Shown here piece by piece: positions 3,708 through 63,548 of a stretch of 64,000 nucleotides of DNA. The position numbers were made by a program, and so were the translations under genes. Origin of the DNA: an uncultured Pseudobdellovibrionaceae bacterium (lineage in GTDB: Bacteria > Bdellovibrionota > FAC87 > UBA2466); the NCBI GenBank assembly GCA_964653655.1, contig CAZZHG010000012.1, positions 1,116 through 65,115 on the forward strand, written 5' to 3'. Below the pieces are notes generated by a model. It was not told where the DNA came from, made no database searches, and worked only from the letters and a program-made list of their open reading frames with translations. The stretch's first letter is position 1. Every line of letters begins with the position of its first letter.

Positions 3708-3715
3708 GAGATCTT

Positions 3716-23868: not shown

Positions 23869-23877
23869 GAGAAGACC

Positions 23878-28488: not shown

Positions 28489-28605
28489 CGCATACTTATC
28501 GGCCGGTCCTAGTCCAGGACTAAGGGCCGGGTAGCGCGGGGCGTTACCTGAGCCTGCCAATGGAGACTTTTGACACGGAAGCCCAGTTAGGGTTTTTTAG
28601 GCGCC

Positions 28606-41418: not shown

Positions 41419-41430
41419 ACTCTCTCCCTG

Positions 41431-42102: not shown

Positions 42103-42166
42103 CTGATGGCTTCGCGCCGCTGGAAGTCGTGCCTTACGGGCCTCCATGGCCGGATAATTCCCTTTC

Positions 42167-43695: not shown

Positions 43696-43732
43696 CCGGG
43701 AACCCGCCGCGGGTGGTAACTTCGCGGAACCG

Positions 43733-46743: not shown

Positions 46744-46879
46744 GGCCCAAGTGTAACCCCGGGCGAGCCGGTCTCAAGACGCGAGAGCCCGGCGAGGCTT
46801 GTAGTGTCCTCGTCGACACGAACGAGTTGCCTCGGCCAAGCGGACGCACGATCGATGCTTGTTCGAATTTGGACCGAAG

Positions 46880-47767
46880 TCAGCGCCGAGAAAGTACGCG
46901 CCAGCCCCACGACGAGAGGCGGGACTTCGCCCTCGCGGGGTCCAGAGTGGCGAGCAACGTGGGGGGTTCCCAGGCGCCGGATGCCGCCTCGTGCGTCAGG
47001 AGTCGGAGACTCGGCCGAAAGAGACCCCGGCCGAGCAGAAAAACGTGGTAGCCGGCGGCCTTCAGAAGCCCTCTCGATTCATCGTGTACCGGGTCATTCT
47101 CCTCGAACAGAATGTCCCGCACTCGACCGGACGCAAGTAAAGTTCGGGCGCCCTTTAGAACGGCCGCCTCGTGTCCTTCGACGTCGAGCTTTAGGAGGGC
47201 CGGAATGGGGCGGGACCGAAAGAACCCATCGAGTGTCGCCGTCCGGACGCTTAGCGAAGAACCCCTCGTGGAGCGGGATAGGCTGCTGAGCCCCGAGTTG
47301 ACGGCGAATGACTCGGGCACATGGAGTTCGGCTTCGCCTTCCCGATCGGAGAGGGCGAGCGCGTGGCACTCGACTCCGGCAACGCACCCGCTTCCCTTCC
47401 AGGAAGCGACATTCGCGGTGAGCTTGGAATAGAGCTCCGGGTGGGGCTCGAAAGCGTGGACCGAGCCTCCGGACGCGGACCGGCGGGCAAGCACGGCGGC
47501 CATCGAGCCGATGTTGGCTCCGACATCGACGGCGGTTTCACCGGGACTGAGAAGCCGATGGAGCGCCTCAGCCACTACCAAATCGTAGATTCCGAGGGTG
47601 ACTATGGCGCGTCCAATATTTTCGGACGGATTCACGCGCAGCGGCCAGCCCCAAGGGAGCCTCACGGTAAGCTCGCGGTCAGGAACGCCCGTTACCGCAA
47701 GGCGAAGACGCCTGGCGAGCTGGTCGGGACGAAACAAATACTCGGCCTTGGCGAGAGATTCACGCAT
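46880..47767 (-). CDS. FkbM-family methyltransferase
   Basis: AGGAG RBS; VDVGANIG, AFEPHP, TATLD, KLDVEGHE. Confidence 0.92.
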   Translation of the reverse strand: MRESLAKAEYLFRPDQLARRLRLAVTGVPDRELTVRLPWGWPLRVNPSENIGRAIVTLGIYDLVVAEALHRLLSPGETAVDVGANIGSMAAVLARRSASGGSVHAFEPHPELYSKLTANVASWKGSGCVAGVECHALALSDREGEAELHVPESFAVNSGLSSLSRSTRGSSLSVRTATLDGFFRSRPIPALLKLDVEGHEAAVLKGARTLLASGRVRDILFEENDPVHDESRGLLKAAGYHVFLLGRGLFRPSLRLLTHEAASGAWEPPTLLATLDPARAKSRLSSWGWRVLSRR

Positions 47768-47883
47768 GAGCTCCTATGAACGCTAACGTATTCGGAAGTA
47801 AAAAAGAATCGCTTTCGGCCGCGGGGTCATTGGTCCGTCGAGAGTTTAAGGAACGACGTTCAGGCTCAACTCCCTGACCAGAC

Positions 47884-48912
47884 CTACGCGAGAGCCCGGC
47901 GCAGACACTGTCCCCAGAGTCTCGCGGACTCGTCCCAGGAATACTCGAGGGCCCGGGCCCGGGAGTGGCCGGAGTGGCGGAGCCGGAAATCGGGCGCCAA
48001 CGCCCCTTGAAGTTTCTCCGCCAGACTGTCCACGGAGGCCGGGTCGAAATAGTGGCCGGCGGAACCCGCGACCTCACGGAAAATTTCCGTGTCGGAAAGA
48101 AGGACCGGGCAACCACAGGCCATCGCCTCCAACGTGGGAAACCCGAACCCCTCGTGAAGCGACGGAAACACGAAGGCCGCGGCACCGGAGTAAAGCTTCC
48201 TAAGCCCCTCGTGATCGGGAAGCGGCCTCAGCTCCACCCGATCCTGAATGGCGAGGTGATGGAGATTCTCCCGCTCGGAAATCGTCCACGGTTTTCCGGC
48301 GACGATGAGCCTCGCGTTTCTTTGGAGAGCGAAAGCCCGAAGCAGAAAGTTGAAATTCTTGTAGTGCTGCCGCCCGCCCACGTAGAGAAAATAAGGCGCC
48401 TTGCCATCGGAAACCTGCTTTTCCGGAAAAAAGTGAGAGTGGCTCACCGCGGGTTTGGCGACATCCACGCGAGAAGGCTCGAGACCATAACAGGCAAGCA
48501 CATCTTTCCTCGTTTTCTCGGACAGCGCTACGACTCTCGCCGCGTGCCGAAGGTAAACCGGATAACGGCGGCGCAGCCACCGTCCCCACGGACCCTGGTA
48601 ATACTCGGGGAAAAGCTCGTGATTCAGATCGTAGACGACCGCCACCGCCACCGCGCGCGGCGCCCTTGTTTCCGTGAAATACGTCGAGAGAAAGACGAAG
48701 GGATCTTTGGCGAGGAGTCCCGCGGCGAAAGTAAACGGCGCCACTTTCCTCCGGACGTCCTCGGGCACCCCTCCGCGCGGTGGACCCGACAGCAGAAGCT
48801 CGACGTCGCAGTCCTCCTGGCGCGCGATGCGCGGAAGAAGCTCGTTGAAAAGCGTGTTGATGCCGCCGTGCTGTTGCAGCCGGTAAATCCTTCCGTCGAC
48901 GAGAATCCGCAT
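47884..48912 (-). CDS. Glycosyltransferase family 4 (mannosyltransferase-like)
   Basis: VVYDLNHE, YVGGRQHYKN, FVFPSLHEGFGFPTLEAMACGCPV. Confidence 0.93.
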   Translation of the reverse strand: MRILVDGRIYRLQQHGGINTLFNELLPRIARQEDCDVELLLSGPPRGGVPEDVRRKVAPFTFAAGLLAKDPFVFLSTYFTETRAPRAVAVAVVYDLNHELFPEYYQGPWGRWLRRRYPVYLRHAARVVALSEKTRKDVLACYGLEPSRVDVAKPAVSHSHFFPEKQVSDGKAPYFLYVGGRQHYKNFNFLLRAFALQRNARLIVAGKPWTISERENLHHLAIQDRVELRPLPDHEGLRKLYSGAAAFVFPSLHEGFGFPTLEAMACGCPVLLSDTEIFREVAGSAGHYFDPASVDSLAEKLQGALAPDFRLRHSGHSRARALEYSWDESARLWGQCLRRALA

Positions 48913-50059: not shown

Positions 50060-50135
50060 TGGAGCGGGAGACGGGGCTCGAACCCGCTACCTTCTCGTTG
50101 GCAACGAGATGCTCTACCAAATGAGCTACTCCCGC
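50060..50135 (-). tRNA. tRNA-Gly (anticodon GCC)
   Basis: 76-nt cloverleaf GCGGGAG...TCTCG-TTGCCAA-CGAGA...TTCGAGC...CTCCCGC-TCCA with encoded CCA. Confidence 0.98.
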
Positions 50136-50332: not shown

Positions 50333-52663
50333 ATGTACCGCTCTATCTACGCGTTCGCGTTCTTGGTAGTCCTTCTCTGCTCGGGTTTCGCGCAAGCCGA
50401 GCGCTCTCCGACCGGAACCGTGGACATCCCGCCGGCCGCCGATCGAATCTACGGCTGGGCCTACGATCCGGATCGCCCCGACGCGAGCTTGGCCATTCAC
50501 GTGTACTACGGCGGGCCCGCCGGCAGCGGAACCGGCAAGATTTACACCGCCGATTTCGCCCGGCCCGACGTAAACGCCGCTTTCAAGATCAACGGCAACC
50601 ACGGCTTCAACGTTCCCTTCGACGATGCCTTCCGCACCGGCTCGCCCGTGGGAATCTGGGTCTACGCCATAGATGCGAACGGAAATCCGAACGTCCTGAT
50701 CGGGACGAGGACCTATACGGTTAGCCCGCCGCAAGTCGCCGGCGGAAAAGTCGGCATCCTCTACCAAATCGCACAGAGCTTCGCGTGGCGAAACAATACA
50801 TTCGGCGACGCCAACTTCAGAACCATGCAAGACGTGCTTCAAGATCCGAACCTGTCGGTCGGCGACCTATATCCGCCCGTGGGTACGGGGACCTGGCCGT
50901 TCGCCAATCCCATCGACTTCGTCACCCAGACGAACCCGGTCGATACCGACGGCAAGTCTCAGCTTTACTGTTTCTTCGACGGTCAGCCGAACCGAGCCCC
51001 CTTTTTCAACGTCATTTGCCGTGACGACCGGATGCTGGCGGTAGCCAAGCGTCATGTCCGTCAGCTGACCGATCTCGGCGTGGACTTTCTGCTCATCGAC
51101 AACACGAACGCCTTCCTCGACAACTTGGATTACGGGTCGGAGGTCACCTACTTCCGTCCGATTGAGGTCTTCTTCGCAAAGTGGAAGGCGGCGGTCGCGG
51201 CCGTCCGGGCGGAGAGAAACAATCCGAATCTCCAGGTCCCGAAACTTGCGATCTGGGGCGCGGTTCCCGGCAACTCCACCTACCATACGAGGATGCTGCG
51301 CCTCTACGACGACAGCCAATACGACTCCGTCCTTTACCGCCACAACGGAAAGAAAGTCTTCTTCTACGTGGACCCGTCGGCCGGCGATCCCAACGAGAAG
51401 CGGTATCCGAGCGCGGGCGTACTCAACGAAATCGCTTCTCATAACATTTTACCCGTTCCTATGTGGACCCACTTCGGCCCGAACGGATTCGACGGCACTG
51501 CCACCCACAAATGGGATTTCGTCTCACCCTGCTTCGCCCCGGGCTCCACCACCCGCGCGACGACCAGCGTGGCGAGCGTGACGAGCTGTAACCAGTTCAT
51601 GTCGACGAATACTCCCATGGGCTCGGTGATCACGGCGACTCCGAGTTACAACATCCCGGGAGCGGTCGCGAGTCAGGCGTTCGGTTCGAGCGGAAGGCTC
51701 GGCGGCCTGACGCTGAAAAAGCAGTTCGATGCGGTATTCGCGCGCCGGCCGGATTACGTTTTCATCTCCTCCTGGAACGAGCACGGAGCCGGACCAAGCT
51801 TGTCGCCGTCCCGAGGCAGAGCGGTCGGCCTGGGAGATAAACTTCCCGCGGTCCCGACCGCGCAGTACCTGCTCGCTGAGCGGATGGTGAAGGAAGCCGC
51901 CGGGGATATATCGGCGCTCATTTACTTTCCCGCCAGCCCGGAAGCGGCGTCTGGACGGAGCAACCTTCAACGCAACTTCGGCGTCAGCTTCACCGACTAC
52001 GCGGATCTCAACCGCCAATACCCGGTGGAAGCCGCGAGACTGCGCTATTCCCATTACGTCGACGACTATGCCGCGGAATTCTCGAAAGACCTGGAACCCA
52101 CGAGAGAATACGGAACCGCTTTGTACGAAAAAGCGAAAACGCTGATTCAGCTCTACAAGAGCGGAGCTCGGAGCTGCCCGGCTACGTTGCCGGCCTGCCG
52201 AAGCGCTTCCGACTACCGCCCCGTAGCGGCCCTCCGGGATCCGGCGGGACGCTACTGGTACGGCCCGGTGTCGGCGAAGGCACCTCTGGTTTCAGCCGGT
52301 TACCGGGAAATCTGCGCTCCCAACGCCTTTCAAAGCGACTTCTGTTCCAATCCCGCCGACCCTTACGTGGCCCAAGGCCCATTCCTCGCATACGAAACGA
52401 ACCTGCCAGGTACCCAACCCCTCACTCGCTGCCGCAACACCAACAACGGCGCGTATTGGTTCACCGCAAACTCCGCCGAGTGCGGCATCAATCCCGCATA
52501 CAGAAACGACGGGGTAATCGGATACGTGGCGATAACCAAGTCGAAAGAGATGACCCGCGTTCTCAACCGCTGCTACAAGCCCGGGGGATTTCACTTCATC
52601 GCGGTCGACGAACCTTGCCCCGTGGGTACAAACGGGGAAGGCGTCCTCGGCTACGTTCACTGA
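50333..52663 (+). CDS. Large secreted multidomain protein with GH99/GH71-like TIM barrel
   Basis: Signal peptide; N-terminal GWAYDPD Ig-like module; GVDFLLIDNTN and FISSWNEH; Cys-rich C-terminal repeats (PLTRC, VLNRC..HF). Confidence 0.72.
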   Translation: MYRSIYAFAFLVVLLCSGFAQAERSPTGTVDIPPAADRIYGWAYDPDRPDASLAIHVYYGGPAGSGTGKIYTADFARPDVNAAFKINGNHGFNVPFDDAFRTGSPVGIWVYAIDANGNPNVLIGTRTYTVSPPQVAGGKVGILYQIAQSFAWRNNTFGDANFRTMQDVLQDPNLSVGDLYPPVGTGTWPFANPIDFVTQTNPVDTDGKSQLYCFFDGQPNRAPFFNVICRDDRMLAVAKRHVRQLTDLGVDFLLIDNTNAFLDNLDYGSEVTYFRPIEVFFAKWKAAVAAVRAERNNPNLQVPKLAIWGAVPGNSTYHTRMLRLYDDSQYDSVLYRHNGKKVFFYVDPSAGDPNEKRYPSAGVLNEIASHNILPVPMWTHFGPNGFDGTATHKWDFVSPCFAPGSTTRATTSVASVTSCNQFMSTNTPMGSVITATPSYNIPGAVASQAFGSSGRLGGLTLKKQFDAVFARRPDYVFISSWNEHGAGPSLSPSRGRAVGLGDKLPAVPTAQYLLAERMVKEAAGDISALIYFPASPEAASGRSNLQRNFGVSFTDYADLNRQYPVEAARLRYSHYVDDYAAEFSKDLEPTREYGTALYEKAKTLIQLYKSGARSCPATLPACRSASDYRPVAALRDPAGRYWYGPVSAKAPLVSAGYREICAPNAFQSDFCSNPADPYVAQGPFLAYETNLPGTQPLTRCRNTNNGAYWFTANSAECGINPAYRNDGVIGYVAITKSKEMTRVLNRCYKPGGFHFIAVDEPCPVGTNGEGVLGYVH

Positions 52664-52672: not shown

Positions 52673-53968
52673 CTAAACCTGAACCCTGGGAAGGCGGAGC
52701 ACGAACCGGGGAAAGGGCGAACGCTTGTCCAGAAATAATTTCCCGCCGTGGTCCTCGGCGATTCCTTTCGAAATACTGAGGCCGAGCCCGGTTCCCTTGC
52801 CCACCGTCTTGGTCGTGAAGAATGGCTCGAAAAGGCGGTCCTGAATCGAGGGGGCGATCGGCGGCCCCGAATTGGAAACGGAGATTTCCACGTAAGAGGA
52901 CTGCTCCAGAACCGAGAGGCGAATCCATTTCGTGGAAAGCTTGGCCACCGCGTCGTGAGCGTTACCGAGCAGGTTGAGAAGGATTTGCGAAACCTGGATC
53001 GCCCGGCACTCCAGGCTGAGCGCCTCGGGAATCTCGTCGGTAAGAAGCCGTACCTGATGAAACGCGAGCTTTTCGGAGCACAGAGTAAGCGTGTCGTCGA
53101 TAATCCGGCGCAAGTCTTCCTTCTGAAACGAGTCCCGGCTTCCGTCCCGGGAAAAGGCCCGCAGGCCGCTGACGATCTTGGAAATGCGCTTCACCGTGCG
53201 CTCGATCTTCTGATTGAACTCGATGATGCGCTCCCTATCGATGGGTTCGGTCATCACGAGATGGGGAATCTTCTCGGAAGCAAGCCCGATGATGGCAAGC
53301 GGAGTGTTGATCTCGTGGGCGATGCCCCCCGCCATTTCGCCGAGGGCGGCCATCTTGGACGCGGCGACTCCGCGCTGAAACTGGGCCGCAAGTTTCTTTT
53401 CGGCTTCCTCGCGCGAATGCACTTCCCCCTGCAGCCGGTCGCAGAACTCCAGCATGCTGTTCTCGAGACCCTGTTTGAGAGTGATGTCTTGAACCACGCA
53501 GACCGTGCCGCGGGTCTCCCCGGACTCCGTCAGCAAGGGCGACAACGCCACGTTGTAGGTGCGCACGAGCGGCGGACAGAGAAATTCGCGTACCTCGATC
53601 TCTTTCAAGGACTGCGCGGGCTTAAGAAATCCGTTCTCCGAGAGCAGATCAAAGGGCTCTTTGCCAGGCGAGTCCGCCTGCAGGACGGAGAGAATCTGTT
53701 TCGCGGCCGAATTCAGGTAAATGATGCGGTCGTTTTCGTCGGTGATTACCTGAGCGGAGCCCGCGAGCAGAATGGAGTTGCAAGACCCGAGGCTCATAGC
53801 GAGCTTCGGGTCCAAGTCCTGGCGGATGAGACTCACGAGCTCGACGGGCGTGATCTTATCCAAAGTCAGACCACGTTCTTTCAGGGAGACCTCGAGGAGC
53901 GCCTTGGCGAACAGAGGGGTGATCGTGGAGAGCTTGGTAAGCAGCGACTGGTATAGAGCCTCGATCAT
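52673..53968 (-). CDS. Cytoplasmic PAS sensor histidine kinase (NtrB-like)
   Basis: PAS (ITDENDRIIYLN), GEMAGGIAHEINTPL, NLLGNAHDA, FEPFFTTK..GKGTGLGL; no TM segments. Confidence 0.93.
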   Translation of the reverse strand: MIEALYQSLLTKLSTITPLFAKALLEVSLKERGLTLDKITPVELVSLIRQDLDPKLAMSLGSCNSILLAGSAQVITDENDRIIYLNSAAKQILSVLQADSPGKEPFDLLSENGFLKPAQSLKEIEVREFLCPPLVRTYNVALSPLLTESGETRGTVCVVQDITLKQGLENSMLEFCDRLQGEVHSREEAEKKLAAQFQRGVAASKMAALGEMAGGIAHEINTPLAIIGLASEKIPHLVMTEPIDRERIIEFNQKIERTVKRISKIVSGLRAFSRDGSRDSFQKEDLRRIIDDTLTLCSEKLAFHQVRLLTDEIPEALSLECRAIQVSQILLNLLGNAHDAVAKLSTKWIRLSVLEQSSYVEISVSNSGPPIAPSIQDRLFEPFFTTKTVGKGTGLGLSISKGIAEDHGGKLFLDKRSPFPRFVLRLPRVQV

Positions 53969-54657
53969 TTAACCCGGCCCTCGAAAAGTCCGGCGTGCTC
54001 CTTCTTGTAGTCGCGGATGAATCCCTGAAGGCGATTCGGATGCGCCATGATGAACCGGCAGTAGGCGTCGCCCTTCGCACGACAGAGGATTTCCTCCGCC
54101 ACGAGCGGGACGCCGAAACTTTCCGCGCACCAGCCCGAGGAATAGCCTGCGTTCATGAAGCAGGCGCAGAAGGAAGTCTTTCGTCCTATCGCCAGCCAGG
54201 AGTCGGCCTCGAAGGACTGGGGATGATCGTAGAGGAGATAGAAGTCTTCGTCCGGGGTAGGCTTACTCTTCTCGGAAATATCGACAAAGGCCCAGCCGGC
54301 GTAGGCGAAATGAACGGGACCAGCCGACAGCTTCGCAATCGGATCCGAGACACCGGTCACGGCGTGAAAACGAAGGGCGTCCGCCCGGCCCATGCTATGA
54401 GCCATGTCGAACAACACGATGGACGACGCTTGCTGCGCCTCGCTCTCCACGAGACCGGGATACATCGCCCTGATGAAATCGAAAAAATTCACGGACAGAG
54501 AGGCCGCCCGCATGAGTACGTAGCGCTCTCCATTTATGTTGATGGTTCCCTTGGAAGGATCTTCCTGCCTCGTCTCGAAATAGCGGCTCACGAACGTTTC
54601 GGCCGTCTGAAACAGCGGCTCGAAGGACGGAGGGACTCGAACGGTCTTCAAATTCAT
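53965..54657 (-). CDS. XylR_N/V4R (4VR) ligand-binding domain protein
   Basis: GERYVL, GPVHFAYAGWA, SFEA, C..NAGYSSGWC..SFG..LVAEEILCRAKGDAYCRF; ATGA overlap with the kinase. Confidence 0.88.
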   Translation of the reverse strand: MNLKTVRVPPSFEPLFQTAETFVSRYFETRQEDPSKGTININGERYVLMRAASLSVNFFDFIRAMYPGLVESEAQQASSIVLFDMAHSMGRADALRFHAVTGVSDPIAKLSAGPVHFAYAGWAFVDISEKSKPTPDEDFYLLYDHPQSFEADSWLAIGRKTSFCACFMNAGYSSGWCAESFGVPLVAEEILCRAKGDAYCRFIMAHPNRLQGFIRDYKKEHAGLFEGRVK

Positions 54658-54727: not shown

Positions 54728-55378
54728 TTAGAAAAACTTCAGTGTGACGCGGCGATTCTTACTCTGATTTTCGGGTATTGGCCGGCCGCTTTTATCCCGA
54801 TTGGCGACCAGAGGCTGAGTTTGGCCGTAGGCGAGAATCACGGTCCGCTGTTCGACTTCCGGAGGAAGGCTCAAGGACCCTAGAACGGACAGAGCCCGCT
54901 TCGCCGACAGGTCCCAGTTGCTGCCCACCGAGCTGGTGTGGATCGGAGTGTCGTCCGTATGCCCTTCGATGCCGATGCGGTAAGGAGCCGGGACTTTTCC
55001 GAGGGCTTTGGCGAGGGAGCCCATCAGCTTGCGGCCGCGGTCGTGAAGCTGAAACTTGCCGCTGGAAAAGAACACCTGGTCCTTGATCTCGACCAGAAGC
55101 TCTCCGCCTTTTCGTTTCACGACGATCTGATCCTGAAGCCCGCTCTTGGTCACCCACTGGGTGACGCTTCCCTGGATGTCGCCCACGGGATCCTTCACCC
55201 GCCGGTTTCCGAGGGCGGAGAGAATGTTCATGATGTCGGCCTGCTTCATCTGCTTGGCCGCGAAGCTGTACAGGGTTACAAAGAAGATGAAGAGCAGAAT
55301 CATCAGATCGCTCAAGCTCACGAGCCAGAGAAACTCTCCGCTTTCACCTTGGCGCCTTCTTCGAAAATAGCGTCGCAT
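54728..55378 (-). CDS. motB: MotB/PomB-type stator B subunit with OmpA-like peptidoglycan-binding domain
   Basis: TM WLVSLSDLMILLFIFFV with the conserved Asp; IEGHTDDTPI, NWDLSAKRA, AYGQTQP, NRRV. Confidence 0.9.
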   Translation of the reverse strand: MRRYFRRRRQGESGEFLWLVSLSDLMILLFIFFVTLYSFAAKQMKQADIMNILSALGNRRVKDPVGDIQGSVTQWVTKSGLQDQIVVKRKGGELLVEIKDQVFFSSGKFQLHDRGRKLMGSLAKALGKVPAPYRIGIEGHTDDTPIHTSSVGSNWDLSAKRALSVLGSLSLPPEVEQRTVILAYGQTQPLVANRDKSGRPIPENQSKNRRVTLKFF

Positions 55379-56157
55379 CAGGCAACCCGTTTGAGCTTAG
55401 GCTTGGCGTCGTCGGCGATTTCCGCCGTATCGGCGAAGTAAGAAGTGGGCTTACGCTTCTCGAGCAGCTCGAGCCAGCGAAGCGTCTGATCGAAACCATG
55501 CATTTCGAGAGACAGAAGCTTTTCGATCTTCTGCTGAATCGGCGTCCAGACCGCGAGCGAGAAGAAAAGACCGTAGAACGTGGTGAGCAGCGCAAGTCCC
55601 ATGGCGGATCCGATTTTGGAGGGGTCCTCCAAAGTCGAGAGCAAGCGCACCATGCCCATGATGGTCCCGAGCATGCCGATGGACGGAGTGAGACGAACCG
55701 CGGAGCTGACGACATTTACCGCCTGCACCAGCTCGGATTCCCGACGGCCCTGATCAATCGAAGAGAGATCGCGGATGTCGGCGGTGGGCATTCGCAGAGA
55801 AAGCCGCTCCACCACCTTCTCCACGAAAGGCGTGAGCCCTCCGGCCTTGGCCGAGTCGAAAGCCTTCTGGCCGCCGTCGTAGAAACTCTTTCCCAGCTCG
55901 TGCAAGAACATCGCTTCTTTCGTCGACTTCTTCTTTAGACGCCCGGGCGAACGGAACATCGCCATTCCGAAAGCACGGAAAACTTCCCCCGCGTCGAAGC
56001 ACAGAAAAAGAAGGGCGATGGGACCGAGTCCCGTCAGTACCATGGCGGGCCAGTGAAAGAGGCGCAAGAGCCCCACGGCTTCCGAGGTGCCTTCGTACTC
56101 GAAGACGATCCACAGACAGGCCACCACTCCGGCAAATCCGAACAAACGCGTAATCAT
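55378..56157 (-). CDS. motA: MotA/PomA-type stator A subunit
   Basis: Four TM segments with a large cytoplasmic loop; PSIGMLGTIMGMV, LEDPSKIGSAMGLALLTTFYG; TGATG coupling to motB. Confidence 0.9.
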   Translation of the reverse strand: MITRLFGFAGVVACLWIVFEYEGTSEAVGLLRLFHWPAMVLTGLGPIALLFLCFDAGEVFRAFGMAMFRSPGRLKKKSTKEAMFLHELGKSFYDGGQKAFDSAKAGGLTPFVEKVVERLSLRMPTADIRDLSSIDQGRRESELVQAVNVVSSAVRLTPSIGMLGTIMGMVRLLSTLEDPSKIGSAMGLALLTTFYGLFFSLAVWTPIQQKIEKLLSLEMHGFDQTLRWLELLEKRKPTSYFADTAEIADDAKPKLKRVA

Positions 56158-57839
56158 TGGGCCATCGCCTCCCGGATCCGTTTCGTGAAGGTATTGCGTG
56201 CCCGCTGAGCCTTATCTCTCGGCGCCGAGCGGGCGGAATTCAATTGACCCTGAAGGAGATTAGCCCGGCGTTCCGGCAGAGAGCCCATGACCACTTCGGC
56301 CACGTCGGCGCTGCAGGTGCTGATGGCGAGCGCGAGCTCTTCGTTGTCCATCTCCGAGGTGACCTTCTTGAGGAAATCGTCGGGCAGCGTGGCCGCGTCC
56401 TCGAGGGAGAACTTGAACTTCTGCAGCGACGGGGAGATCCCGGGGTTCGTAGCCTCCAGGTCCCGAAGAATCTCCGCCTGTCTCGTCGACTCGCTGAGAA
56501 CGCTGGACCAGAAATCGACTTGAGAGGGTCCGGGGCCGATGGCATACGCGGGCAACCGGCGGACGGCTTCCCGGATGTCGCGCTCTATGGTCGCGATTTC
56601 CGAAAGCGGAATCTGCTGGGCCTCGTCGAGACGGCTCAGCACCGCGTGGCGGCGCTGGGCCGGCAGGCCGTCGAGAACCGCCGCGCATTGAACCGGCTTC
56701 ATGAAGCGCATCATCAGACAAACGGTGAGATCGCTCTCGAACGTCATCAGGGAAGCGAGCTGCTCGCGAGTGAGCTGGTTCAGGAACCCAAAGAACTGCT
56801 TGTCCTGACTCAGCTTCGCGTTCACGAACTCGTTGAACTGCGCTTCATAGGCAGCCGCCATGTCCTCCAAGTCCCCCGAGGGACCGGAAGGTTGTGGGCG
56901 ATCGAAATGAAAATTCTCCATCAGACTCTCGAAAGCGGGGCCGCCGAGAACGGTTTCAATTTCGCCGCGCAGCTCGGGAGTCAGCATTTCGTAATAGGCC
57001 CGAAACGCGTTGGCATTCGAGACGGCTCTCTCGAGAAAGCGCGTGCGGGCGGAGCCCGAAACGGGAGCGGACGGGGCAAGCGCGGCCGTGGCCGCGGCCT
57101 GTTGGGGTGCCGGCGCATAGGGCGCGGCCATCATGGGAGCGGCGACCTGAGGCGGCTGGCTCCATCTCGGGCGCGACTGGCTTCTCGCCGGCTTCGGGGC
57201 TTCCACGGGGGCGCGGCGGCGCAAGACCAAATAAAGGCCGATGGCAGCGAGCGCGATCCAAGGGAAGTACTTCGTCGCCAAGTCCGCGAGCGATTCCTCT
57301 TCTTCCACCGCGTCGGCCGGGTTCTGCGGCAGAACCGGCGCGTCCTTGTCCTTCTTCGGCGCCTTTAGCATCGCGACGTCCAGAAAGCTCAAGCGAACGA
57401 CGTCCGGATAGTTCGCGAAGAGATAAGTCTGAATCAAATTCTTCGTCTGCGCCGTAACTTTTTGCGGAAGCTCTTGATCGAACCCGATGTTCACCCGTAT
57501 CGCCGTCAAAACCGGAGTCTCCACGGACCGATAGGTGTGGCGCAGGTGCTTGTCGGCGGCCGGCACCGGATCCGGTGTCTCGGGAACAAAACCTGGAAGC
57601 GGATCCGGCGGCGTGATCTTCGCCGCGGCTTCCACGTCCTGGCTTTCCTCGCCTTCGACCACTTTTCTCTGCTCGTCCACGCGGACTTCCGCGTTCACCT
57701 GGAGCAGGTATTGATCGGAGGGAATCAACCGGGAGAGCAAGCCTTCGAGATCGGTGCGGACCCGCGCCTCGACGAGATAAGGGGACTCCGCCGCGAAGGC
57801 GGTGGAGGCGGCAAGCAACAATGTGATCAGAATCTTCAT
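56154..57839 (-). CDS. FliF-like ring-building domain fused to FliG middle and C-terminal domains
   Basis: Signal peptide; RBM3-like periplasmic domain; one TM (YFPWIALAAIGLYLV); FliG-M (FFGFLNQLTREQL..FESDLTVCLMM) and FliG-C (FKFSLED..LPDD....NEELALAI..LPERRA). Confidence 0.8.
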   Translation of the reverse strand: MKILITLLLAASTAFAAESPYLVEARVRTDLEGLLSRLIPSDQYLLQVNAEVRVDEQRKVVEGEESQDVEAAAKITPPDPLPGFVPETPDPVPAADKHLRHTYRSVETPVLTAIRVNIGFDQELPQKVTAQTKNLIQTYLFANYPDVVRLSFLDVAMLKAPKKDKDAPVLPQNPADAVEEEESLADLATKYFPWIALAAIGLYLVLRRRAPVEAPKPARSQSRPRWSQPPQVAAPMMAAPYAPAPQQAAATAALAPSAPVSGSARTRFLERAVSNANAFRAYYEMLTPELRGEIETVLGGPAFESLMENFHFDRPQPSGPSGDLEDMAAAYEAQFNEFVNAKLSQDKQFFGFLNQLTREQLASLMTFESDLTVCLMMRFMKPVQCAAVLDGLPAQRRHAVLSRLDEAQQIPLSEIATIERDIREAVRRLPAYAIGPGPSQVDFWSSVLSESTRQAEILRDLEATNPGISPSLQKFKFSLEDAATLPDDFLKKVTSEMDNEELALAISTCSADVAEVVMGSLPERRANLLQGQLNSARSAPRDKAQRARNTFTKRIREAMAQ

Positions 57840-58477
57840 TGGTATCGGCTAAGGACGCTTTGGACTTCCGGGTTCGCCGGTTCCAGCTCCTGAGCTTTCT
57901 TCCAGGCCTTCATGGCCAAATCCTTGTGTCCCTGAACGAGCAGAAGGCTACCCTTCATGAGCCAGCCCCGCGTGAACTCCGGACGCTTGCGAAGCAGCTG
58001 ATCCACCACCGTAAGCGCTTCGTAGAAGCGGCGGCGGTTGAAGAGCCGGTTCGCGTCCACGACGAGAGAATCGGCATCGTCGATGAGTACAGTCGGAACC
58101 TGGGAACCCGGCTGGTTCGGAAGGAATTTTCCCGTCGGAAGAAGCGGAACGGAGTCCGTCTGCCGCGCGGCCTCCGGCGCCTTCGCGTCGGTTTCCGGAT
58201 TCAAATTCGCCACCGGACCCGCGCCCTTTTTCAGCTGATCGACGGGAATCGAAAGACGGTAAGGCACGTTCTGGCCGAAACCCGTCGGAATGTGAATGGT
58301 GCCGTAAGGAGTTTTCAGCTCGACTTGATTGTCCGTCTCGTTCACGGAATAGAAACCGGGGGGCGCTTCCGAATCCGGCGGCGGCACGATGGGCACGATG
58401 GGGGTGTCCGCGCCGGACAAACTGACGCCGAGGATGGCCGCAATCACCCAGCTGAAATGTAGAAACGCGCGTTTCAT
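57836..58477 (-). CDS. Periplasmic TPR protein
   Basis: Signal peptide MKRAFLHFSWVIAAILG; C-terminal TPRs (RRFYEALTVVD, WLMKGSLL..QG...AMKAWKKAQELEP); ATGA overlaps at both ends. Confidence 0.82.
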   Translation of the reverse strand: MKRAFLHFSWVIAAILGVSLSGADTPIVPIVPPPDSEAPPGFYSVNETDNQVELKTPYGTIHIPTGFGQNVPYRLSIPVDQLKKGAGPVANLNPETDAKAPEAARQTDSVPLLPTGKFLPNQPGSQVPTVLIDDADSLVVDANRLFNRRRFYEALTVVDQLLRKRPEFTRGWLMKGSLLLVQGHKDLAMKAWKKAQELEPANPEVQSVLSRYQ

Positions 58478-59439
58478 CTTCCCAAGGCCAGCCCTATGTG
58501 CACTCCGCCGTAGCCGCTGAGGGTTCCGGCGGGAGCGGTGCTGGGGACGAAAAAGTAGACGCCGTCGACTCCGGCCACCGCCCACGAACCGAGAAAGAGC
58601 TCGTAGGAGAATCTGGCGACCGGGCCCTTGAAGCTGCTCAGCATGCCGTAGCCAACCCCGACGTTCACCGACCAGCCTAGAGACGAGTGACCGTAACGTC
58701 CGCGGAACGAAATCGTCGGATCAAGGTGGATCAGGGTATTTCCGGGAGCAGAAACCATGCCGAGGTTCAAACCGCCCTTGGCGAAGCCCAGCTCTTCGGC
58801 GAGCTGGACGTTGAGAGAAGTGGTGATTCCGCTCTGAGAGCTTCCGCCCGAGTACATGCCGATGCCGGAACCGAAAGTAATGAGTAACTGCACGGAACTG
58901 TCGGAGAAGTTGACGGCGGGCACTTGAAACCGCTCCGCGCCCATTAGGCTTCCGTCGGTGTTCGAGTAAAGAGTCGCCTGCGCGAGCAGCGAAAGTTTCG
59001 TGCGGTAGATCTCGGCGACGAGCAACGAGTCCGCCGGAAGTTTCTTGCCGGCTTTCTTCACGGCCTCCACGTCGGACGCGCCCTTCGTCACGATGACTTC
59101 GTTGCCTTGGATCTCGACCTTCGCCGTTTTGCATTCCGCGCAGGTGGTGACCCGGTGGATCCCCTGCTTGGCGAGATACTTCATGATTTCGGTTTCGATG
59201 ACGGTGCTGAACGTGCCGTCGAAGGGCTCGTTGGCGTTCACGGAGAAGAGAGCGACCGAGTCGACTTTCTTTTCCTCGGTTTCGAGCTTCTTGATCCAGC
59301 GGGCGATGTCCTCGCCGATGACGGCGGCCGCGCCGAACTCGGCTTCGTCGGGAGGCCTGGCGAATGCGCAAGACGCCCACGCGAAGATCGCGCAGCCCGT
59401 CAGAACACCGAGTGAGAAGAGGGGATTCCTCGCTGACAT
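58474..59439 (-). CDS. Outer-membrane protein: FlgO/CsgG/TolB_N-like domain plus C-terminal beta-barrel
   Basis: Likely start MSARN at 59439; signal peptide; alpha/beta domain with CAEC; about eight amphipathic strands ending GGVHIGLALGR. Confidence 0.65.
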   Translation of the reverse strand: MSARNPLFSLGVLTGCAIFAWASCAFARPPDEAEFGAAAVIGEDIARWIKKLETEEKKVDSVALFSVNANEPFDGTFSTVIETEIMKYLAKQGIHRVTTCAECKTAKVEIQGNEVIVTKGASDVEAVKKAGKKLPADSLLVAEIYRTKLSLLAQATLYSNTDGSLMGAERFQVPAVNFSDSSVQLLITFGSGIGMYSGGSSQSGITTSLNVQLAEELGFAKGGLNLGMVSAPGNTLIHLDPTISFRGRYGHSSLGWSVNVGVGYGMLSSFKGPVARFSYELFLGSWAVAGVDGVYFFVPSTAPAGTLSGYGGVHIGLALGR

Positions 59440-59588: not shown

Positions 59589-60317
59589 ATGCGCTCCCCT
59601 CTCAAATGGCTGACGCTTGCCGTCTTAATCGCCGGCAAAAGCTCGTTCGCCCTTCCCGAGCGCGTGCTTTCTTTCGACGTGGGAACGGGATCTCCGGAGC
59701 TCGTGTTCGTTCACGGGCAGGTTCAGGTTTGGAAACGCTGGCAGCTCGGAGTGGGCTACTCCTACATCCCCAACGTTCCGCCGCTCGGCCAGGCGATGCA
59801 GGGGCCGGCGACTACGCTTACCCTCGCCGACGGAATGGCCTACCAGACGAATCCGACCATCGTGCCGCGGGCGAACTTCATCTCCGCCTACATTAGATAT
59901 TTCCCGGCGGAGAATAACTTCTACTTCCAGCTCGCCTATTCGTTGGCGCAGATGACGGCTCACGTTACGACGGGACTGGAAAACACCGCGCTCGCCACTT
60001 CCCTAACCGGCGCCCTCATCACGGCGGACCTAACCTTCCGCCAAGCCATCCCGGCGCTGTCGATCGGATACTTGTTCACCGGAAAATTCTTTTTCGCCAA
60101 CATCAGTCTCGGCGCGGCGTGGGTCGGCGCGTTCACCTCCTCAATGACGGTAAACGCTCTTATCCCCGATTTGGTAGGCGGAGCCGCCGGCAACCAGGCC
60201 GCCCTCGATCAGCTTCAGCAAGATCTGCAATCCCAGGGCGTAGCGGCCGCCGCCTCGCTGCGCAAACAGTACCCCATCCTTCCCTCGCTTCTGATTTCCT
60301 TCGGTTTTCAGTTTTGA
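59589..60317 (+). CDS. Outer-membrane beta-barrel protein
   Basis: AGGAGG RBS; signal peptide; alternating strands; BAM-type C-terminus ISFGFQF. Confidence 0.8.
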   Translation: MRSPLKWLTLAVLIAGKSSFALPERVLSFDVGTGSPELVFVHGQVQVWKRWQLGVGYSYIPNVPPLGQAMQGPATTLTLADGMAYQTNPTIVPRANFISAYIRYFPAENNFYFQLAYSLAQMTAHVTTGLENTALATSLTGALITADLTFRQAIPALSIGYLFTGKFFFANISLGAAWVGAFTSSMTVNALIPDLVGGAAGNQAALDQLQQDLQSQGVAAAASLRKQYPILPSLLISFGFQF

Positions 60318-60343: not shown

Positions 60344-61507
60344 GTGATTCAAATTCCCTTCAGCCGACCCGCGGTCGCGAAAAACCAGGAACGCTACGCG
60401 CTCCAGGCCCTTCGCTCGGGTGAGCTGGGCGGAGACAAGGCGTTCACAAAGCGCTGTCAGCGTTGGATCGAAAAGAAAACGGGATGCCCGAAGGCTTTCC
60501 TCACACCGTCGGCGACCCACGCGCTCGAGATAGCGGCACTGCTATCTAAAGTGAGACCGGGCGATGAGGTCATCCTGCCCTCCTTCACCTTTCCGTCGAC
60601 CGCGAACGCCTTCGTGCTGAGAGGGGCTCAGCCGGTTTTCGTCGATATCCGGCCCGATACGCTGAACCTCGACGAGTCTCTCGTGGAAGCCGCCATCACG
60701 GGGCGCACCAAAGCCATCATCCCCGTTCATTACAATGGGGTCGCCTGCGAGATGACGGTACTGAACGACATCGCCACCCGCCACGGGCTCCTAATGGTGG
60801 AAGATGCGGCATCGGCGATGCTTTCCCGGTATCGGGGCGTCCCCGTCGGTACTCTCGGGGATTTAGGTTGTTTCAGCTTTCACGAAACTAAGAACTTCAG
60901 CGCCGGAGAGGGAGGCGCCCTTCTCCTCAACCGCGAGGAACTGGTCCCCCGCGCGGAAATATTGCGGGAGAAAGGAACGAACCGCGCCCAGTTTTTCCGA
61001 AAGGAAGTGGAGAAATACACCTGGATGGATTGCGGCTCGTCCTATCTTCCAAGCGATTTCACGGCGGCGCTGCTCTTCAGCCAATTCGAGGAGGCCGAAC
61101 GCATCCGATTCAGCCGCCTTCAAGCTTGGGACCACTACTTTCGCTGCTTGTCCGATCTACCGCTGACGCTTCCTTACGTGCCCGCGCATTGCGAGCATAA
61201 CGGCCATGCGTTCGCGGTTCGCCTGTCGAGTGCTAAGCAAAGAGCGGATTTCCAGCGTCAGCTCGCGCGCAAAGGAATCCAGACCGCTTTTCATTATCAG
61301 CCGCTGCATTCGAGCCCGGCTGGGCGAAAGTTCGGCCGCTTTCACGCCAAGGACAAGTACACGACGGCGGAAAGCGCGAAACTGGTGAGGCTCCCCCTCT
61401 ATCCGGGGCTCGCGGAAAAAGACCTGATCCGGGTCGTCGAGACGATTCGGGCCTTCTTCCGGCGCAAGACGAAATCAAAAACTTCCGAGCGCCGATTAAC
61501 CGGTTAA
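60344..61507 (+). CDS. wecE: dTDP-4-amino-4,6-dideoxygalactose transaminase (DegT/DnrJ/EryC1/StrS family)
   Basis: GDKAFTKRC, TPSATHALE, PSFTFPSTANAF, SFHETKN..AGEGG, EKGTNR, GSSYLP, FHYQPLHSSPAG. Confidence 0.9.
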   Translation: MIQIPFSRPAVAKNQERYALQALRSGELGGDKAFTKRCQRWIEKKTGCPKAFLTPSATHALEIAALLSKVRPGDEVILPSFTFPSTANAFVLRGAQPVFVDIRPDTLNLDESLVEAAITGRTKAIIPVHYNGVACEMTVLNDIATRHGLLMVEDAASAMLSRYRGVPVGTLGDLGCFSFHETKNFSAGEGGALLLNREELVPRAEILREKGTNRAQFFRKEVEKYTWMDCGSSYLPSDFTAALLFSQFEEAERIRFSRLQAWDHYFRCLSDLPLTLPYVPAHCEHNGHAFAVRLSSAKQRADFQRQLARKGIQTAFHYQPLHSSPAGRKFGRFHAKDKYTTAESAKLVRLPLYPGLAEKDLIRVVETIRAFFRRKTKSKTSERRLTG

Positions 61508-62739
61508 TTCTCTTCCATCAACGCCGGCGGGTAGATCGTGCCGTCTTTCTGATTTCTCACCACCGGAATTCCGAAGGACGCCATGGGGTGCTGCTCGTCG
61601 TTGCGTACGAAGGAAGCTTCCAAGGGAGAGCGGTTGTCCGGCCAGTCGCTTTGGCAGCTGGCCATGTTGTACTCGAGAATCATCATGCCGGAGACTTTCA
61701 GCGCGGGGACCTCAAACAAGGTCGAATATTGAATGAGCGACACATCGCCTCGGGTGAAGACCTGGTCCCCCTGCACTATCTTGAAGGTGGCCGCGCCGCT
61801 CGAGTGAACGGGACGGGAGGTGCGGTTGGCCAGAAGGAACTTGGCATACCCGTAGGGTTTCAGCTCGGGCTCGATGACCACCATGCCGAGAAAATTTCCG
61901 ACGAAGTTGCGAGAGACCCCGATGAAGAAGTCTCCCTTGCTCTTCACGCCCAAACTCTCGAAAAAGCCCGCCTGACTCTCGTCCTGGAACACGGAATGGA
62001 CCCGCGCATAGTAATCGCAGTCGTAGCAGGGCGTAAGCTCCCGGCAGTGATCGATTCTCGCCAGATACTCACCCGCCCAGTTTCCTGCGAGTAGCTCACT
62101 GATTCCTTGGGCCATGATGGTTCCCGGCACGTGATCGTTGCCGTAGATGTGCCCGATCTCGTGAAGCAGCATCGCCTCAAGCCGCCCTTCCCGTTTCCAA
62201 TCCGGAAAATTGGCGCGAACGGATCCCGCGGGACTCACGTAAATAAAGCCGCGGCCAAGCCCGGTCGCGGGATCGTAGTGGGTGCGCTGCACGAACGCCG
62301 TCGGATTGTCGAACTGCCCCTTCGCCGCCTTAACCACCGCGTTTTCGACGCCGAGATAGACAGCCAACTCCTGTTTCCCGTCGCAAACGTCGCTTAGGGT
62401 GAGCTTCGTCGAAAGCTTCGGAGCCTTCTCTTCAGGATAGAGATTGTGTCCCTTGATGTAGTTTCCCCATTGGGCGAAAGCGGACTCGAGGATCTTGCGG
62501 ACGGTTTCCTTGTCAGCGCCGAACTCGGGCCCGATCTCGAAGCACACAGCAATGGGACGGTCCTCCCCTAGAAACCAGGCCGCTAAGTGGTCCTTCGCGT
62601 GGTTGTCGCCGCCGCTGCCCACATCCGTGCCTCCGCCCGACATCTGTTGAGCCGGAAGATCGGAAGGCGCGGGAGCCTGAACCACGAGCTGCCGCTGACA
62701 ACCGGCGAGGACGAGCATCGAAACGAGCCACTTCTTCAT
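61504..62739 (-). CDS. Lipoprotein with zinc-metalloprotease motif
   Basis: MKKWLVSMLVLAGC lipobox; HEIGHIYGNDH and Met-turn GTIM; ATGA overlap with the upstream gene. Confidence 0.8.
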   Translation of the reverse strand: MKKWLVSMLVLAGCQRQLVVQAPAPSDLPAQQMSGGGTDVGSGGDNHAKDHLAAWFLGEDRPIAVCFEIGPEFGADKETVRKILESAFAQWGNYIKGHNLYPEEKAPKLSTKLTLSDVCDGKQELAVYLGVENAVVKAAKGQFDNPTAFVQRTHYDPATGLGRGFIYVSPAGSVRANFPDWKREGRLEAMLLHEIGHIYGNDHVPGTIMAQGISELLAGNWAGEYLARIDHCRELTPCYDCDYYARVHSVFQDESQAGFFESLGVKSKGDFFIGVSRNFVGNFLGMVVIEPELKPYGYAKFLLANRTSRPVHSSGAATFKIVQGDQVFTRGDVSLIQYSTLFEVPALKVSGMMILEYNMASCQSDWPDNRSPLEASFVRNDEQHPMASFGIPVVRNQKDGTIYPPALMEEN

Positions 62740-63548
62740 GAGCGCCTCCGTCTTTTCGTAAGGGGGAAAACCTGCACGTTCATCTGATAAAGTTCGGTGC
62801 ACTCGCCACGGGTCAGGTATCTCAATAGAGAACGGCGAAACTTCTGAATCCGCTTCTTCGCTTCCGCGAGACGGGCCGGGTTGATGGCCATCGTCATCCC
62901 CGTGATGTCGCGGGCGGCGAAATCCTCCGGATCGCCCGATTCCAAGGCGGCGAGCGCTTTGCCGATCATCTGCCCGTGAAACTTTCGCACGGCTTCGTTG
63001 GCTTCTCCCGGAAGAAACTCCGCCTTGGCGTGGGTCTTCTTCCATTTGCCGCGCGAAACCGTGAGCAGCCCGAGACGTTTGAGGCGCGAGACCGCCGCCC
63101 TTACCTCTTCCAGCGTGAGACCCAAGCGATCGGCGACCCACCGATCGCTGGATTCGAAGCAATCCAAGGTGGTCAGATCCAAGATGGCGACGTGGTACCA
63201 CTCGGACAGGTATTTGAACTGGTCGAGACGCACGCTGAAAAACTCTTCGCCGGACTTCGCCTTCGGCTCCACCGGAGACGAGATTTTCCGGTCGAATTGA
63301 GCTCGCCGGCAGGAGTCCAGAAATCCGAGGGATGCCTTCTGATCGAGACCGACGGCCTGGCTGAAATGAAGGGCGCGCTTCACCGGAATGGGGCGCTTGC
63401 CGCTCAAGACGAGACTGAGATAAGCGTGGCTGATTCCGAGATCGCGCGCGAACGCGCGTAACGAATACGAGGGATTACGGGAAACCCGTTCCACGAGGGC
63501 CCGCCTCAAAACATCCGAAGGCGCGGCGCTTTGGGCGGAAGTTTCCAT
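62736..63548 (-). CDS. TIGR02147 family protein (N-terminal HTH plus DUF4423)
   Basis: RNPSYSLRAFARDLGIS..LS.VLSGKR, LSEWYHVAI, AVRKFHGQM, RDITGMTMAI, ELYQMNVQVFPLT. Confidence 0.92.
   Translation of the reverse strand: METSAQSAAPSDVLRRALVERVSRNPSYSLRAFARDLGISHAYLSLVLSGKRPIPVKRALHFSQAVGLDQKASLGFLDSCRRAQFDRKISSPVEPKAKSGEEFFSVRLDQFKYLSEWYHVAILDLTTLDCFESSDRWVADRLGLTLEEVRAAVSRLKRLGLLTVSRGKWKKTHAKAEFLPGEANEAVRKFHGQMIGKALAALESGDPEDFAARDITGMTMAINPARLAEAKKRIQKFRRSLLRYLTRGECTELYQMNVQVFPLTKRRRRS

Follow-up and report, generated by a model that had tools for sequence, protein, structure and literature searches.

The bacterial flagellar rotor is composed of FliF and FliG and works with MotAB or PomAB stators, and as a rule the motor is regarded as one unit with the type III export apparatus. 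FliF and FliG have also been joined covalently, in a 1:1 ratio, in engineered or mutant fusions of Salmonella and Vibrio alginolyticus, which assemble into MS-ring-like rings (PMC6079021, PMC11481574). Those fusions combine full-length FliF with full-length FliG in a complete flagellum. In contrast, the gene described here, memFliG, encodes a natural fusion whose only FliF-like part resembles ring-building motif 3 (RBM3), and it lies outside a flagellar gene set. It is located in a 64,000-nucleotide stretch of DNA (the window) from an uncultured Pseudobdellovibrionaceae bacterium (assembly GCA_964653655.1, contig CAZZHG010000012.1).

memFliG is the centrepiece of a conserved module of five to six genes. 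We read this module as a flagellum-independent rotor that has neither export gate nor switch and would be driven by its own stator, and we give this reading a probability of about 55%. The module shares with the flagellar rotor an RBM3-like domain with an extended hairpin and a conserved Pro-Gly loop, followed directly by a transmembrane helix, as well as FliG_M and FliG_C domains with a torque helix, a PomA-like MotA, and a MotB with plug, channel Asp and OmpA-like domain. A charge pair of the MotA-E98/FliG-R281 type is also kept. Unlike in the flagellar rotor, the FliF and FliG parts form one polypeptide, with a signal peptide in place of the first transmembrane helix and without RBM1 and RBM2. 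The EHPQ motif is degenerate, no fliM or fliN lies nearby, and Tyr and Gly/Gln stand in place of the R90/D288-D289 pair. The neighbourhood of the module is devoid of type III export, rod, hook and filament genes, and the partner proteins are Sec-exported and of unfamiliar families. In the literature we found engineered FliF-FliG fusions and stator surveys, and no description of a natural membrane-anchored FliG family or of such a module. There is a substantial chance that this flagellar-type rotor-stator, apparently used outside a flagellum, represents a new organelle.

The fusion gene and its elements are located as follows, with residue numbers referring to the protein.

56154..57839, minus strand: memFliG (FliF(RBM3)-TM-FliG fusion, TM for transmembrane helix), 561 residues, ATG start
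57789..57839, minus strand: signal peptide, residues 1-17, cleaved after MKILITLLLAASTAFA and before AE, from the AxA-site rule and the AlphaFold2 helix 2-14
57360..57788, minus strand: periplasmic FliF-RBM3-like domain, residues 18-160, in the order alpha1, beta1, beta2, alpha2, beta3
57588..57599, minus strand: LPGF motif, residues 81-84, at the tip of the collar-like hairpin loop
57216..57290, minus strand: transmembrane helix, residues 184-208, then RRR (positive-inside); a helix in the AlphaFold2 model
56799..57056, minus strand: family-specific cytoplasmic helical domain, residues 262-347, at the position of FliG_N, with AlphaFold2 helices at 264-347
56550..56798, minus strand: FliG middle (ARM) domain, residues 348-430, with a QFFGFL motif and ESDL for EHPQ
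56160..56462, minus strand: FliG C-terminal domain, residues 460-560, Pfam FliG_C
56229-56273, minus strand: torque helix, residues 523-537, ERRANLLQGQLNSAR

The open reading frame (ORF) is real and its named elements are not at chance level. Its GC content at third codon positions is 0.77, like that of the neighbouring genes, and a public protein collection holds a copy identical to the window protein. The product is a type I inner-membrane protein with the domain order Sec signal peptide, periplasmic alpha-beta-beta-alpha-beta domain, one transmembrane helix, Pro/Ala linker, FliG_M and FliG_C. By sequence rules, the signal peptide has a short basic n-region, a hydrophobic core and an AxA cleavage site. 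An N-terminal hydrophobic segment is present across the fusion family, and another, at approximately residues 160-240, in nearly all of its members. AlphaFold2 (AF2), run on the family alignment, modelled the full fusion with a predicted local distance difference test (pLDDT) value of 66 and a predicted template-modelling (pTM) score of 0.27. The N-terminal half of the model comprises a helix (2-14), a helix (20-38), a strand (44-61), a disordered segment (62-101), a strand (102-121), a helix (126-143) and a strand (148-155). The transmembrane helix (184-208) follows, then the Pro/Ala linker, disordered over residues 209-261, and an all-helical region that reaches the C terminus.

A first, sequence-only reading of the window had proposed this layout, and its elements were recovered. 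The AxA rule and the AF2 helix 2-14 support the signal peptide that it had claimed, and the single transmembrane helix and Pro/Ala linker correspond to AF2 helix 184-208 and the disordered residues 209-261. All of the RBM3-like elements that it had listed (helix EARVRTDLEGLL, the YLLQVNAEV strand, an insertion, PVLTAIRVNIGFD, a second helix and a VVRLSF strand) are present in the AF2 secondary structure. It had also noted the absence of RBM1 and RBM2; indeed, these motifs and the first FliF transmembrane helix are missing, and the signal peptide leads straight into the RBM3-like domain, with which the mature protein begins. The YscJ_FliF model (PF01514) has no match, and the protein has only one transmembrane helix, compared with the two that flank RBM1-RBM2-RBM3 in FliF.

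The cytoplasmic part is a FliG-like torque receiver, made up of the family-specific helical domain followed by FliG_M and FliG_C. Pfam FliG_M (PF14841) matched residues 359-427 with 28.1 bits against a cutoff of 25 (E, 2.5e-6), and FliG_C (PF01706) matched residues 460-560 with 56.7 bits against a cutoff of 23.3 (E, 3e-15); 76 and 83 of the 84 family members, respectively, were matched by these models. A six-sequence family profile searched against the PDB retrieved Thermotoga maritima FliG-MC over residues 351-556 (E, 4e-16), and nothing but FliG was matched. The hhalign comparison of 63 family cytoplasmic regions with FliG gave a probability of 99.9 and an E value of 7e-32, covering residues 99-319 of E. 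coli FliG. In Foldseek searches with the full model the best 13 matches were all FliG, and the FliG_C chain of the MotAB-FliG complex (8ucs_H) was matched with a template-modelling score (TM-score) of 0.78 and a root-mean-square deviation of 1.7 A. The FliG-M and FliG-C domains recognized in the sequence-only reading are thus borne out by Pfam scores above cutoff and by the PDB match. The score against TIGR00207, the FliG equivalog, was 49.4 bits for a cutoff of 226.7.

Residues 262-347, conserved as a helical domain in 63 family members, showed no confident hhalign alignment to FliG_N, and the window protein has no match to PF14842. Whereas FliG is soluble, the fusion is anchored in the membrane. 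Weak FliG_N Pfam matches fall within this region in two distant members only, and most FliG_N matches in the relatives, as far as they were checked, are cross-matches on the M domain.

As the first reading had proposed, both signature motifs of FliG are altered. EHPQ, which binds FliM, aligns with ESDL at residues 368-371 and is degenerate across the family, with E in 57/91 and P in 44/91 members and H and Q not conserved; MFxF aligns with KFSL at residues 476-479. In the torque helix, E. coli R281 aligns with R524, whose neighbour R525 is shared by 80/91 members. D288 and D289 of E. coli align with G531 and Q532, positions that are acidic in only 15/91 and 5/91 members, with D or E kept in some distant subfamilies.

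ARM repeats such as those of the M domain could also point to MgtE_N. That the fusion is unrelated to motors, and is either an MgtE-like Mg2+-sensing domain protein or part of a Zorya-like anti-phage module, is barely conceivable in our view. A weak MgtE_N match was obtained (E, 6e-5); its 23.9 bits are below the cutoff of 25.9, so that FliG is the better assignment of the C-terminal part, a comparison that the first reading had suggested. The protein has no CBS or MgtE channel domain, no MgtE was found among the PDB sequence or fold matches, and FliG_C has no counterpart in MgtE. The Zorya-like version is considered with the stator below.

The periplasmic domain is probably homologous to FliF RBM3, the ring-building and beta-collar part of FliF. 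A separate AF2 model of residues 18-160 (pLDDT 75, pTM 0.55) shows the alpha-beta-beta-alpha-beta order of an RBM, and beta1 and beta2 are extended to 18-20 residues, forming a long hairpin with a Pro-rich loop of 40 residues. The best 17 PDB matches of this segment in Foldseek were all RBM3 or S-ring chains of FliF from Salmonella and Vibrio (E, 8e-4 to 6e-3; probability, 0.94-1.0; TM-score, approximately 0.4), while OsmC, PrgK (E, 1e-2) and SpoIIIAG (E, 8e-2) ranked below them. The full-length model gave the FliF RBM3 pattern again, after the FliG matches. An RBM fold for the N-terminal domain, which the sequence-only reading had put forward for checking, is therefore predicted, with FliF RBM3 ahead of PrgK and SpoIIIAG. 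SpoIIIAG of the sporulation channel and SctJ/PrgK of the injectisome have the same fold, and SpoIIIAG also carries a beta insertion that forms a collar, but they rank lower in the fold search, and both occur without a FliG fusion or a link to MotAB.

Profile comparisons pointed in the same direction. We aligned 80 family N-domains with 75 FliF RBM3 sequences gathered with residues 225-433 of E. coli FliF. hhalign gave a score of 30.8 (P = 2e-4) and paired VEARVRTDLEGLLSRLIP...LLQVNAEV with VEGRIQRRIEAILSPIV...HAQVTAQL in the correct register, whereas eight controls with reversed or unrelated profiles scored 12-19 (P = 0.04-0.42). With a relaxed alignment threshold, the match extended colinearly over every RBM3 element. 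The Pfam model of FliF RBM3 (PF08345) matched 4/84 family members, all distant ones, in the RBM3b segment just before the transmembrane helix; the best match (E, 7e-4; 20.4 bits) is below the threshold of 23.8 bits. Reciprocal hidden Markov model searches yielded weak, register-consistent matches in 113/120 FliF sequences. A sequence-only PDB search with the N-domain and a Pfam search of this domain in the window protein found nothing, and the FliF homology surfaced only through structure, profile-profile comparison and distant family members. FliF itself assembles into a ring of approximately 33-34 subunits. In Salmonella, RBM3 alone is enough to form the S-ring and collar (PMC11739650).

Between the two long strands the loop varies in sequence, but LPGFxPE (residues 81-87) stands out with 3.0 bits per column, a higher conservation than in any other segment of the fusion (at most 2.0). 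P82 is found in 90/91 family members and G83 in 91/91, across all subfamilies. The extended hhalign alignment places LPGF on the VPGALSNQP motif of FliF (E. coli residues 309-317). Residues 305-354 of Salmonella FliF form a flexible chain at the top of the beta-collar, and the N318T substitution there causes the rod to detach from the MS-ring (PMC11739650). Judging from the numbering offset, Salmonella N318 would be the Asn of VPGALSNQP. This analogy makes the LPGF loop a good candidate for the part that grips the occupant of the collar.

Homologues of memFliG were sought with a word-index search, which gave six relatives; repeating it with a 91-sequence alignment added none, and the size of the family was obtained by an exhaustive HMMER search. 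This search returned 84 representatives at E < 1e-30. Approximately 100 proteins of 520-680 residues share the fusion architecture, and the family comprises at least 80 clusters at 50% identity. Its members are recorded only as 'hypothetical protein' or, automatically, as 'FliG'. The module is present in approximately 18 loci of uncultured bacteria, with GC contents of 30-59%, in three gene orders. Fifteen loci of what we call group 1 share one six-gene arrangement, and the identical arrangement was found in seven species-representative metagenome-assembled genomes (MAGs), one further MAG and six metagenome contigs. Carriers of the module include the MAGs GCA_043767805.1 and GCA_964396165.1 and the 2.98-Mb contig CAVZSV010000004.1. 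In the L009 locus, the apparent frameshift of the fusion homologue in tblastn (approximately 4040-4060) corresponds to a masked run of N and is not real.

In that arrangement, which the sequence-only reading had not seen, memFliG is the third gene of an operon. The genes encode a secreted protein of 321 residues (p320), a TPR protein, the fusion, MotA and a plug-bearing MotB, with a gene for a 242-residue protein in divergent orientation. Because four consecutive start/stop overlaps join the five genes (junctions ATGA, ATGA, ATGA and TGATG), they are translationally coupled. The stator genes are the following.

55378..56157, minus strand: MotA/PomA-type stator A subunit, 259 residues, with an ATGA overlap with the fusion gene
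54728..55378, minus strand: MotB-type stator B subunit, 216 residues, with plug, channel Asp and OmpA-like peptidoglycan-binding domain; TGATG at the motA stop

Judged by sequence, the stator appears complete and of the flagellar type (the 'FIT' class of PMC12505986). MotA matched Pfam MotA_ExbB (PF01618; E, 8.5e-18), its best NCBIfam models were PomA (2.4e-17) and MotP, and PomA was found in the PDB with an E value of 1e-12. Equivalog cutoffs were not reached, and the equivalents of E. coli P173 and P222 are kept. MotB matched MotB_plug (PF13677; E, 3.6e-9) and OmpA (PF00691; E, 6.6e-12) in Pfam and MotB in the PDB (E, 2e-21); its top NCBIfam models were MotD, MotB and MotS. The channel Asp of its SLSDLM motif is conserved in all homologues.

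In E. coli, MotA R90 contacts FliG D288/D289 and MotA E98 contacts FliG R281 (PMC12505986). We aligned ten group-1 MotA sequences, from the window and nine other loci. The E98 position (101) was always Asp or Glu and the R90 position always Tyr (Tyr93), in a loop whose alignment is of low confidence except at its GG anchor. On the FliG side, Arg is present in 80/91 members and the acidic pair is lost (Gly531/Gln532). One rotor-stator contact, of the E98/R281 type, thus appears to be preserved, while the R90/D288-D289 pair seems to have changed on both partners, as would be expected of partners that co-evolve.

A torque helix that is partly altered, in a FliG_C-containing protein with no switch motif, might also be that of a stator decoy or regulator, in which a membrane-tethered FliG mimic parks stators as a brake or clutch and has no mechanical output of its own. 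We regard this as very unlikely, given that memFliG has its own dedicated, translationally coupled MotAB, that its periplasmic domain and loop motif are more conserved than its cytoplasmic part, and that secreted partners are conserved with it. The Zorya-like version of a motor-unrelated fusion would draw on the stator as well. ZorAB is a MotAB-like 5:2 motor with a peptidoglycan-binding B subunit, and MotB of the window resembles ZorB. However, the module has a FliG-like partner and lacks the ZorA tail and ZorC/D, and the MotA-ZorA match is marginal. In PADLOC, ZorA was matched with an E value of 0.002 only, the other four proteins had no match, and neither ZorC nor ZorD was found. MotA is of PomA size, without the long ZorA tail, and its E value was 2.4e-17 with PomA versus 0.002 with ZorA.

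Two genes follow motB in the window on the same strand, after a 70-bp gap. They encode a V4R/XylR_N-like protein (230 residues) and a PAS histidine kinase (431 residues) with an ATGA overlap (52673-54657, minus strand), and they may be co-transcribed with the module. This pair is absent from a 69%-identical relative (L001/L003), in which the next gene is a DUF1579 gene on the opposite strand.

The other genes of the module encode secreted proteins.

58474..59439, minus strand: p320, secreted, 321 residues; start reassigned to M39 of the listed ORF on the evidence of homologues
57836..58477, minus strand: TPR protein, periplasmic, 213 residues; real start at M37, from homologues
59589..60317, plus strand: 242-residue secreted protein, candidate outer-membrane beta-barrel; divergent, ending in ...SFGFQF

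p320 has a signal peptide cleaved between AFA and RPPDEAEF, an N-terminal alpha/beta domain with an invariant CxxC, and a Gly-rich, beta-strand-like region of approximately 140 C-terminal residues that ends in ...GLALGR. It is encoded in every group-1 locus, and its homologues (310-323 residues) keep the junction between A-x-A and RPPEEAEF. Its profile also matched proteins of distant subfamilies, namely in L011 (E, 2e-17) and in L012 (E, 5e-7), the latter copy ending in ...LQYLF. The periplasmic CxxC of p320 consists of C100 and C103; in the L015 locus, the module is flanked by four genes for DsbA-like thioredoxins (2779-5017 and 13561-15047).

In the TPR protein, the signal peptide is followed by a small N-terminal domain that is conserved, and a low-complexity linker leads to approximately two C-terminal TPR repeats. 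Its Pfam TPR matches are weak, and a PDB profile search gave generic TPR matches only. In every subfamily examined, its gene adjoins the fusion gene or lies within the same module, and in three distant loci the protein has a lipobox. The gene of the 242-residue protein was found by tblastn at the same divergent position in 11 group-1 loci, and a profile search detected the L015 copy. The homologues end in F or L after a strand of alternating hydrophobic residues, which makes this protein a candidate beta-barrel of the outer-membrane protein (OMP) type. Searches of Pfam and of PDB sequences gave no relatives of p320 or of the 242-residue protein, nor is one related to the other.

The gene order varies in the divergent subfamilies. 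L011 has five co-directional genes in the same order as the window, with detectably homologous p320 and TPR copies, and in L012 the order is fusion-p320-TPR-MotA-MotB, with p320 and TPR homology confirmed. L016 encodes a 360-residue protein at the position of p320, followed by TPR, MotA, MotB and the fusion, and only its TPR copy is detectably homologous. In one subfamily, the TPR, fusion and OMP-like genes stand alone, without an adjacent stator. In this subfamily (L010, 9912-10535; L013, 7914-8549), an OMP-like protein of approximately 210 residues, ending in ...YVNF or ...YINFF, is encoded after the fusion, and the TPR partner is a lipoprotein. In L013, an ExbB-ExbD-ExbD set lies approximately 2.6 kb upstream. 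In L011, genes for an extracytoplasmic function (ECF) sigma factor and a 255-residue protein, possibly its anti-sigma factor, lie directly upstream of p320-TPR-fusion-MotA-MotB (4479-5739), a hint of envelope-stress-type regulation. The ECF sigma factor gene of the window is far from the module (39493-40086).

TolQRA-Pal with the TPR protein CpoB, ExbBD-TonB, AglRQS-Glt and GldLM of the type IX secretion system (T9SS) combine an ion motor and a single-pass adaptor with periplasmic TPR proteins and outer-membrane partners, a logic like that of the module. None of the TolQRA, ExbBD-TonB, AglRQS and GldLM systems, in contrast, is known to drive a FliG or an RBM ring. The resemblance suggests a force transducer as another explanation for the locus. 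Single fusions or small oligomers would dock on MotA5B2 via FliG_C and, on being pulled or twisted, would transmit mechanical energy through the periplasm to the TPR protein and the outer-membrane partners, as TonB, TolA and GltG/J do with ExbBD, TolQR and AglRQS. The module matches those envelope-spanning systems in its layout, in which an inner-membrane protein with a single membrane pass is combined with a TPR protein in the periplasm and with OMP-like partners; conservation is highest in a loop motif that would suit the binding of a partner, and the inspected neighbourhoods hold no FliM or FliN that would scaffold a C-ring. Nevertheless, we consider a transducer unlikely. Among ring-building motifs, the one that the periplasmic domain matches is the very one able to form a ring by itself (PMC11739650), and the B subunit has the plug and peptidoglycan-binding domain that are hallmarks of wall-fixed stators around a rotor (PMC12505986). 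The known non-flagellar envelope 5:2 motors have A subunits of the ExbB/TolQ/GldL type, not of the MotA/PomA type, and B subunits without plug or OmpA-like domain (PMC12505986).

The gene neighbourhoods bear on whether the module could belong to a flagellum. No flagellar Pfam families were found among approximately 150 called genes within 8-10 kb on either side of the fusion gene in eight loci, or in the rest of the 64-kb window, and none of fliF, fliH, fliM and fliN lies near the fusion gene in the neighbourhoods inspected. This context evidence covers gene neighbourhoods and not whole genomes. Each of the three core proteins has its homologues among the parts of the flagellar motor, and several of the source MAGs were labelled Bdellovibrionales or Pseudobdellovibrionaceae by their submitters. 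Bacteria of these groups are usually flagellated and have several motAB pairs. The module might thus be a flagellum-associated component, an accessory or alternative rotor-stator set such as an extra ring or a second motor type, with the other flagellar genes elsewhere. We find this quite improbable, as no flagellar gene is present within the distances given above, RBM1 and RBM2 are absent, the known flagellar proteins include no relatives of the conserved partners, and the score against TIGR00207 is 49 bits for a cutoff of 227. The family moreover spans GC contents of 30-59%, and one locus adjoins a gene with a faint T9SS-tail match. That gene, in L016 (3028-3723), lies near the module on a contig of 38% GC and has a faint match to Por_Secre_tail, the T9SS sorting domain, which suggests that some carriers of the module belong to the T9SS-bearing Fibrobacterota-Chlorobiota-Bacteroidota (FCB) group. 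Bacteroidota of this group are not known to be flagellated.

We therefore return to the flagellum-independent rotor, a reading strengthened by the translational coupling of the fusion to a dedicated flagellar-type MotA/MotB and by the linkage in approximately 18 loci. In the machine that we propose, the RBM3-like domains would oligomerize to form a ring akin to the S-ring, immediately outside the inner membrane. Such a ring would place a circle of FliG_C torque helices beneath the membrane, where peptidoglycan-anchored MotA5B2-type stators, encoded next door, could turn the ring by ion flow. The steps of ring assembly and rotation are made plausible by the rings of RBM3 alone (PMC11739650) and of the FliF-FliG fusions (PMC6079021, PMC11481574). 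Lacking RBM1 and RBM2, the ring would have no housing for a type III export gate, so that the occupant of the collar would have to come via Sec, which points first of all to p320 or the TPR protein. The degenerate FliM-binding motif means that there is probably no switch. The LPGF loop at the tip of the collar might grip this partner and pass torque or force toward the outer membrane; candidate outputs are surface movement, the turning of an outer-membrane component and envelope remodelling. Ring formation, rotation, its single direction and the absence of FliM from the whole genome are what we infer from these features.

Several points weigh against such a rotor. Ring formation and rotation are deduced from sequence and monomer models, and the full-length model has a pLDDT of 66 and a pTM of 0.27. 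The support for the RBM3 fold is moderate (Foldseek E, approximately 1e-3; TM-score, approximately 0.4), the hhalign probability is 46% with a confident alignment over alpha1-beta1 only, and the PF08345 matches are under the gathering threshold. The window fusion has no acidic pair in its torque helix, and E. coli R281 aligns one residue ahead of the invariant Arg. A FliG ring would have to be kept in register without FliM and FliN, canonical flagellar genes may be encoded elsewhere in the genomes, which would leave room for a flagellum-associated role, and all members come from uncultured organisms.

We advance more tentatively, at somewhat short of even odds, the idea that the module forms a previously unrecognized rotary organelle of diderm bacteria, a minimal flagellar-type motor without type III core, switch and filament. 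It would consist of an RBM3 ring joined covalently to FliG, its own MotAB and Sec-exported partners, and would turn or load an outer-membrane or periplasmic component. Such an organelle could be a surviving sister of the rotor-stator module of the proto-flagellum, or it could have put that module to a new use later on. If this is true, the torque core of RBM3 ring, FliG and MotAB would be an independent, reusable unit, retained while everything else was exchanged. This bears on the long-debated origin of the flagellum, since three orders of events could be tested against each other on a natural example: rotor first, secretion first, or later reuse of the rotor. With five to six genes, the candidate machine is small enough for heterologous expression, cryo-electron microscopy and single-molecule work. 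It points to an envelope function not yet described, in uncultured bacteria that are widespread and of which several bear the label Bdellovibrionales from their submitters.

Other genes of the window were also annotated. A DegT aminotransferase gene (60344-61507) adjoins the module. A DUF4423/HTH protein (E, 4e-38) is encoded at 62736-63548 on the minus strand; two paralogues lie near the L001 module, and the family is common to these relatives. A 1013-residue hybrid histidine kinase with HisKA, HATPase, receiver and Hpt domains (25519-28560, minus strand) has no evident link with the module. Directly after tRNA-Gly(GCC) (50060-50135, minus strand), a 776-residue secreted protein with no Pfam match is encoded on the plus strand (50333-52663). 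Surface-polysaccharide genes occupy positions 40603-48912 and include several GT4/GT2 glycosyltransferases, a sulfotransferase-like protein, an FkbM methyltransferase and an ABC ATPase, and a separate MBOAT and AlgX-like O-acetylation pair is located at 22456-25044.

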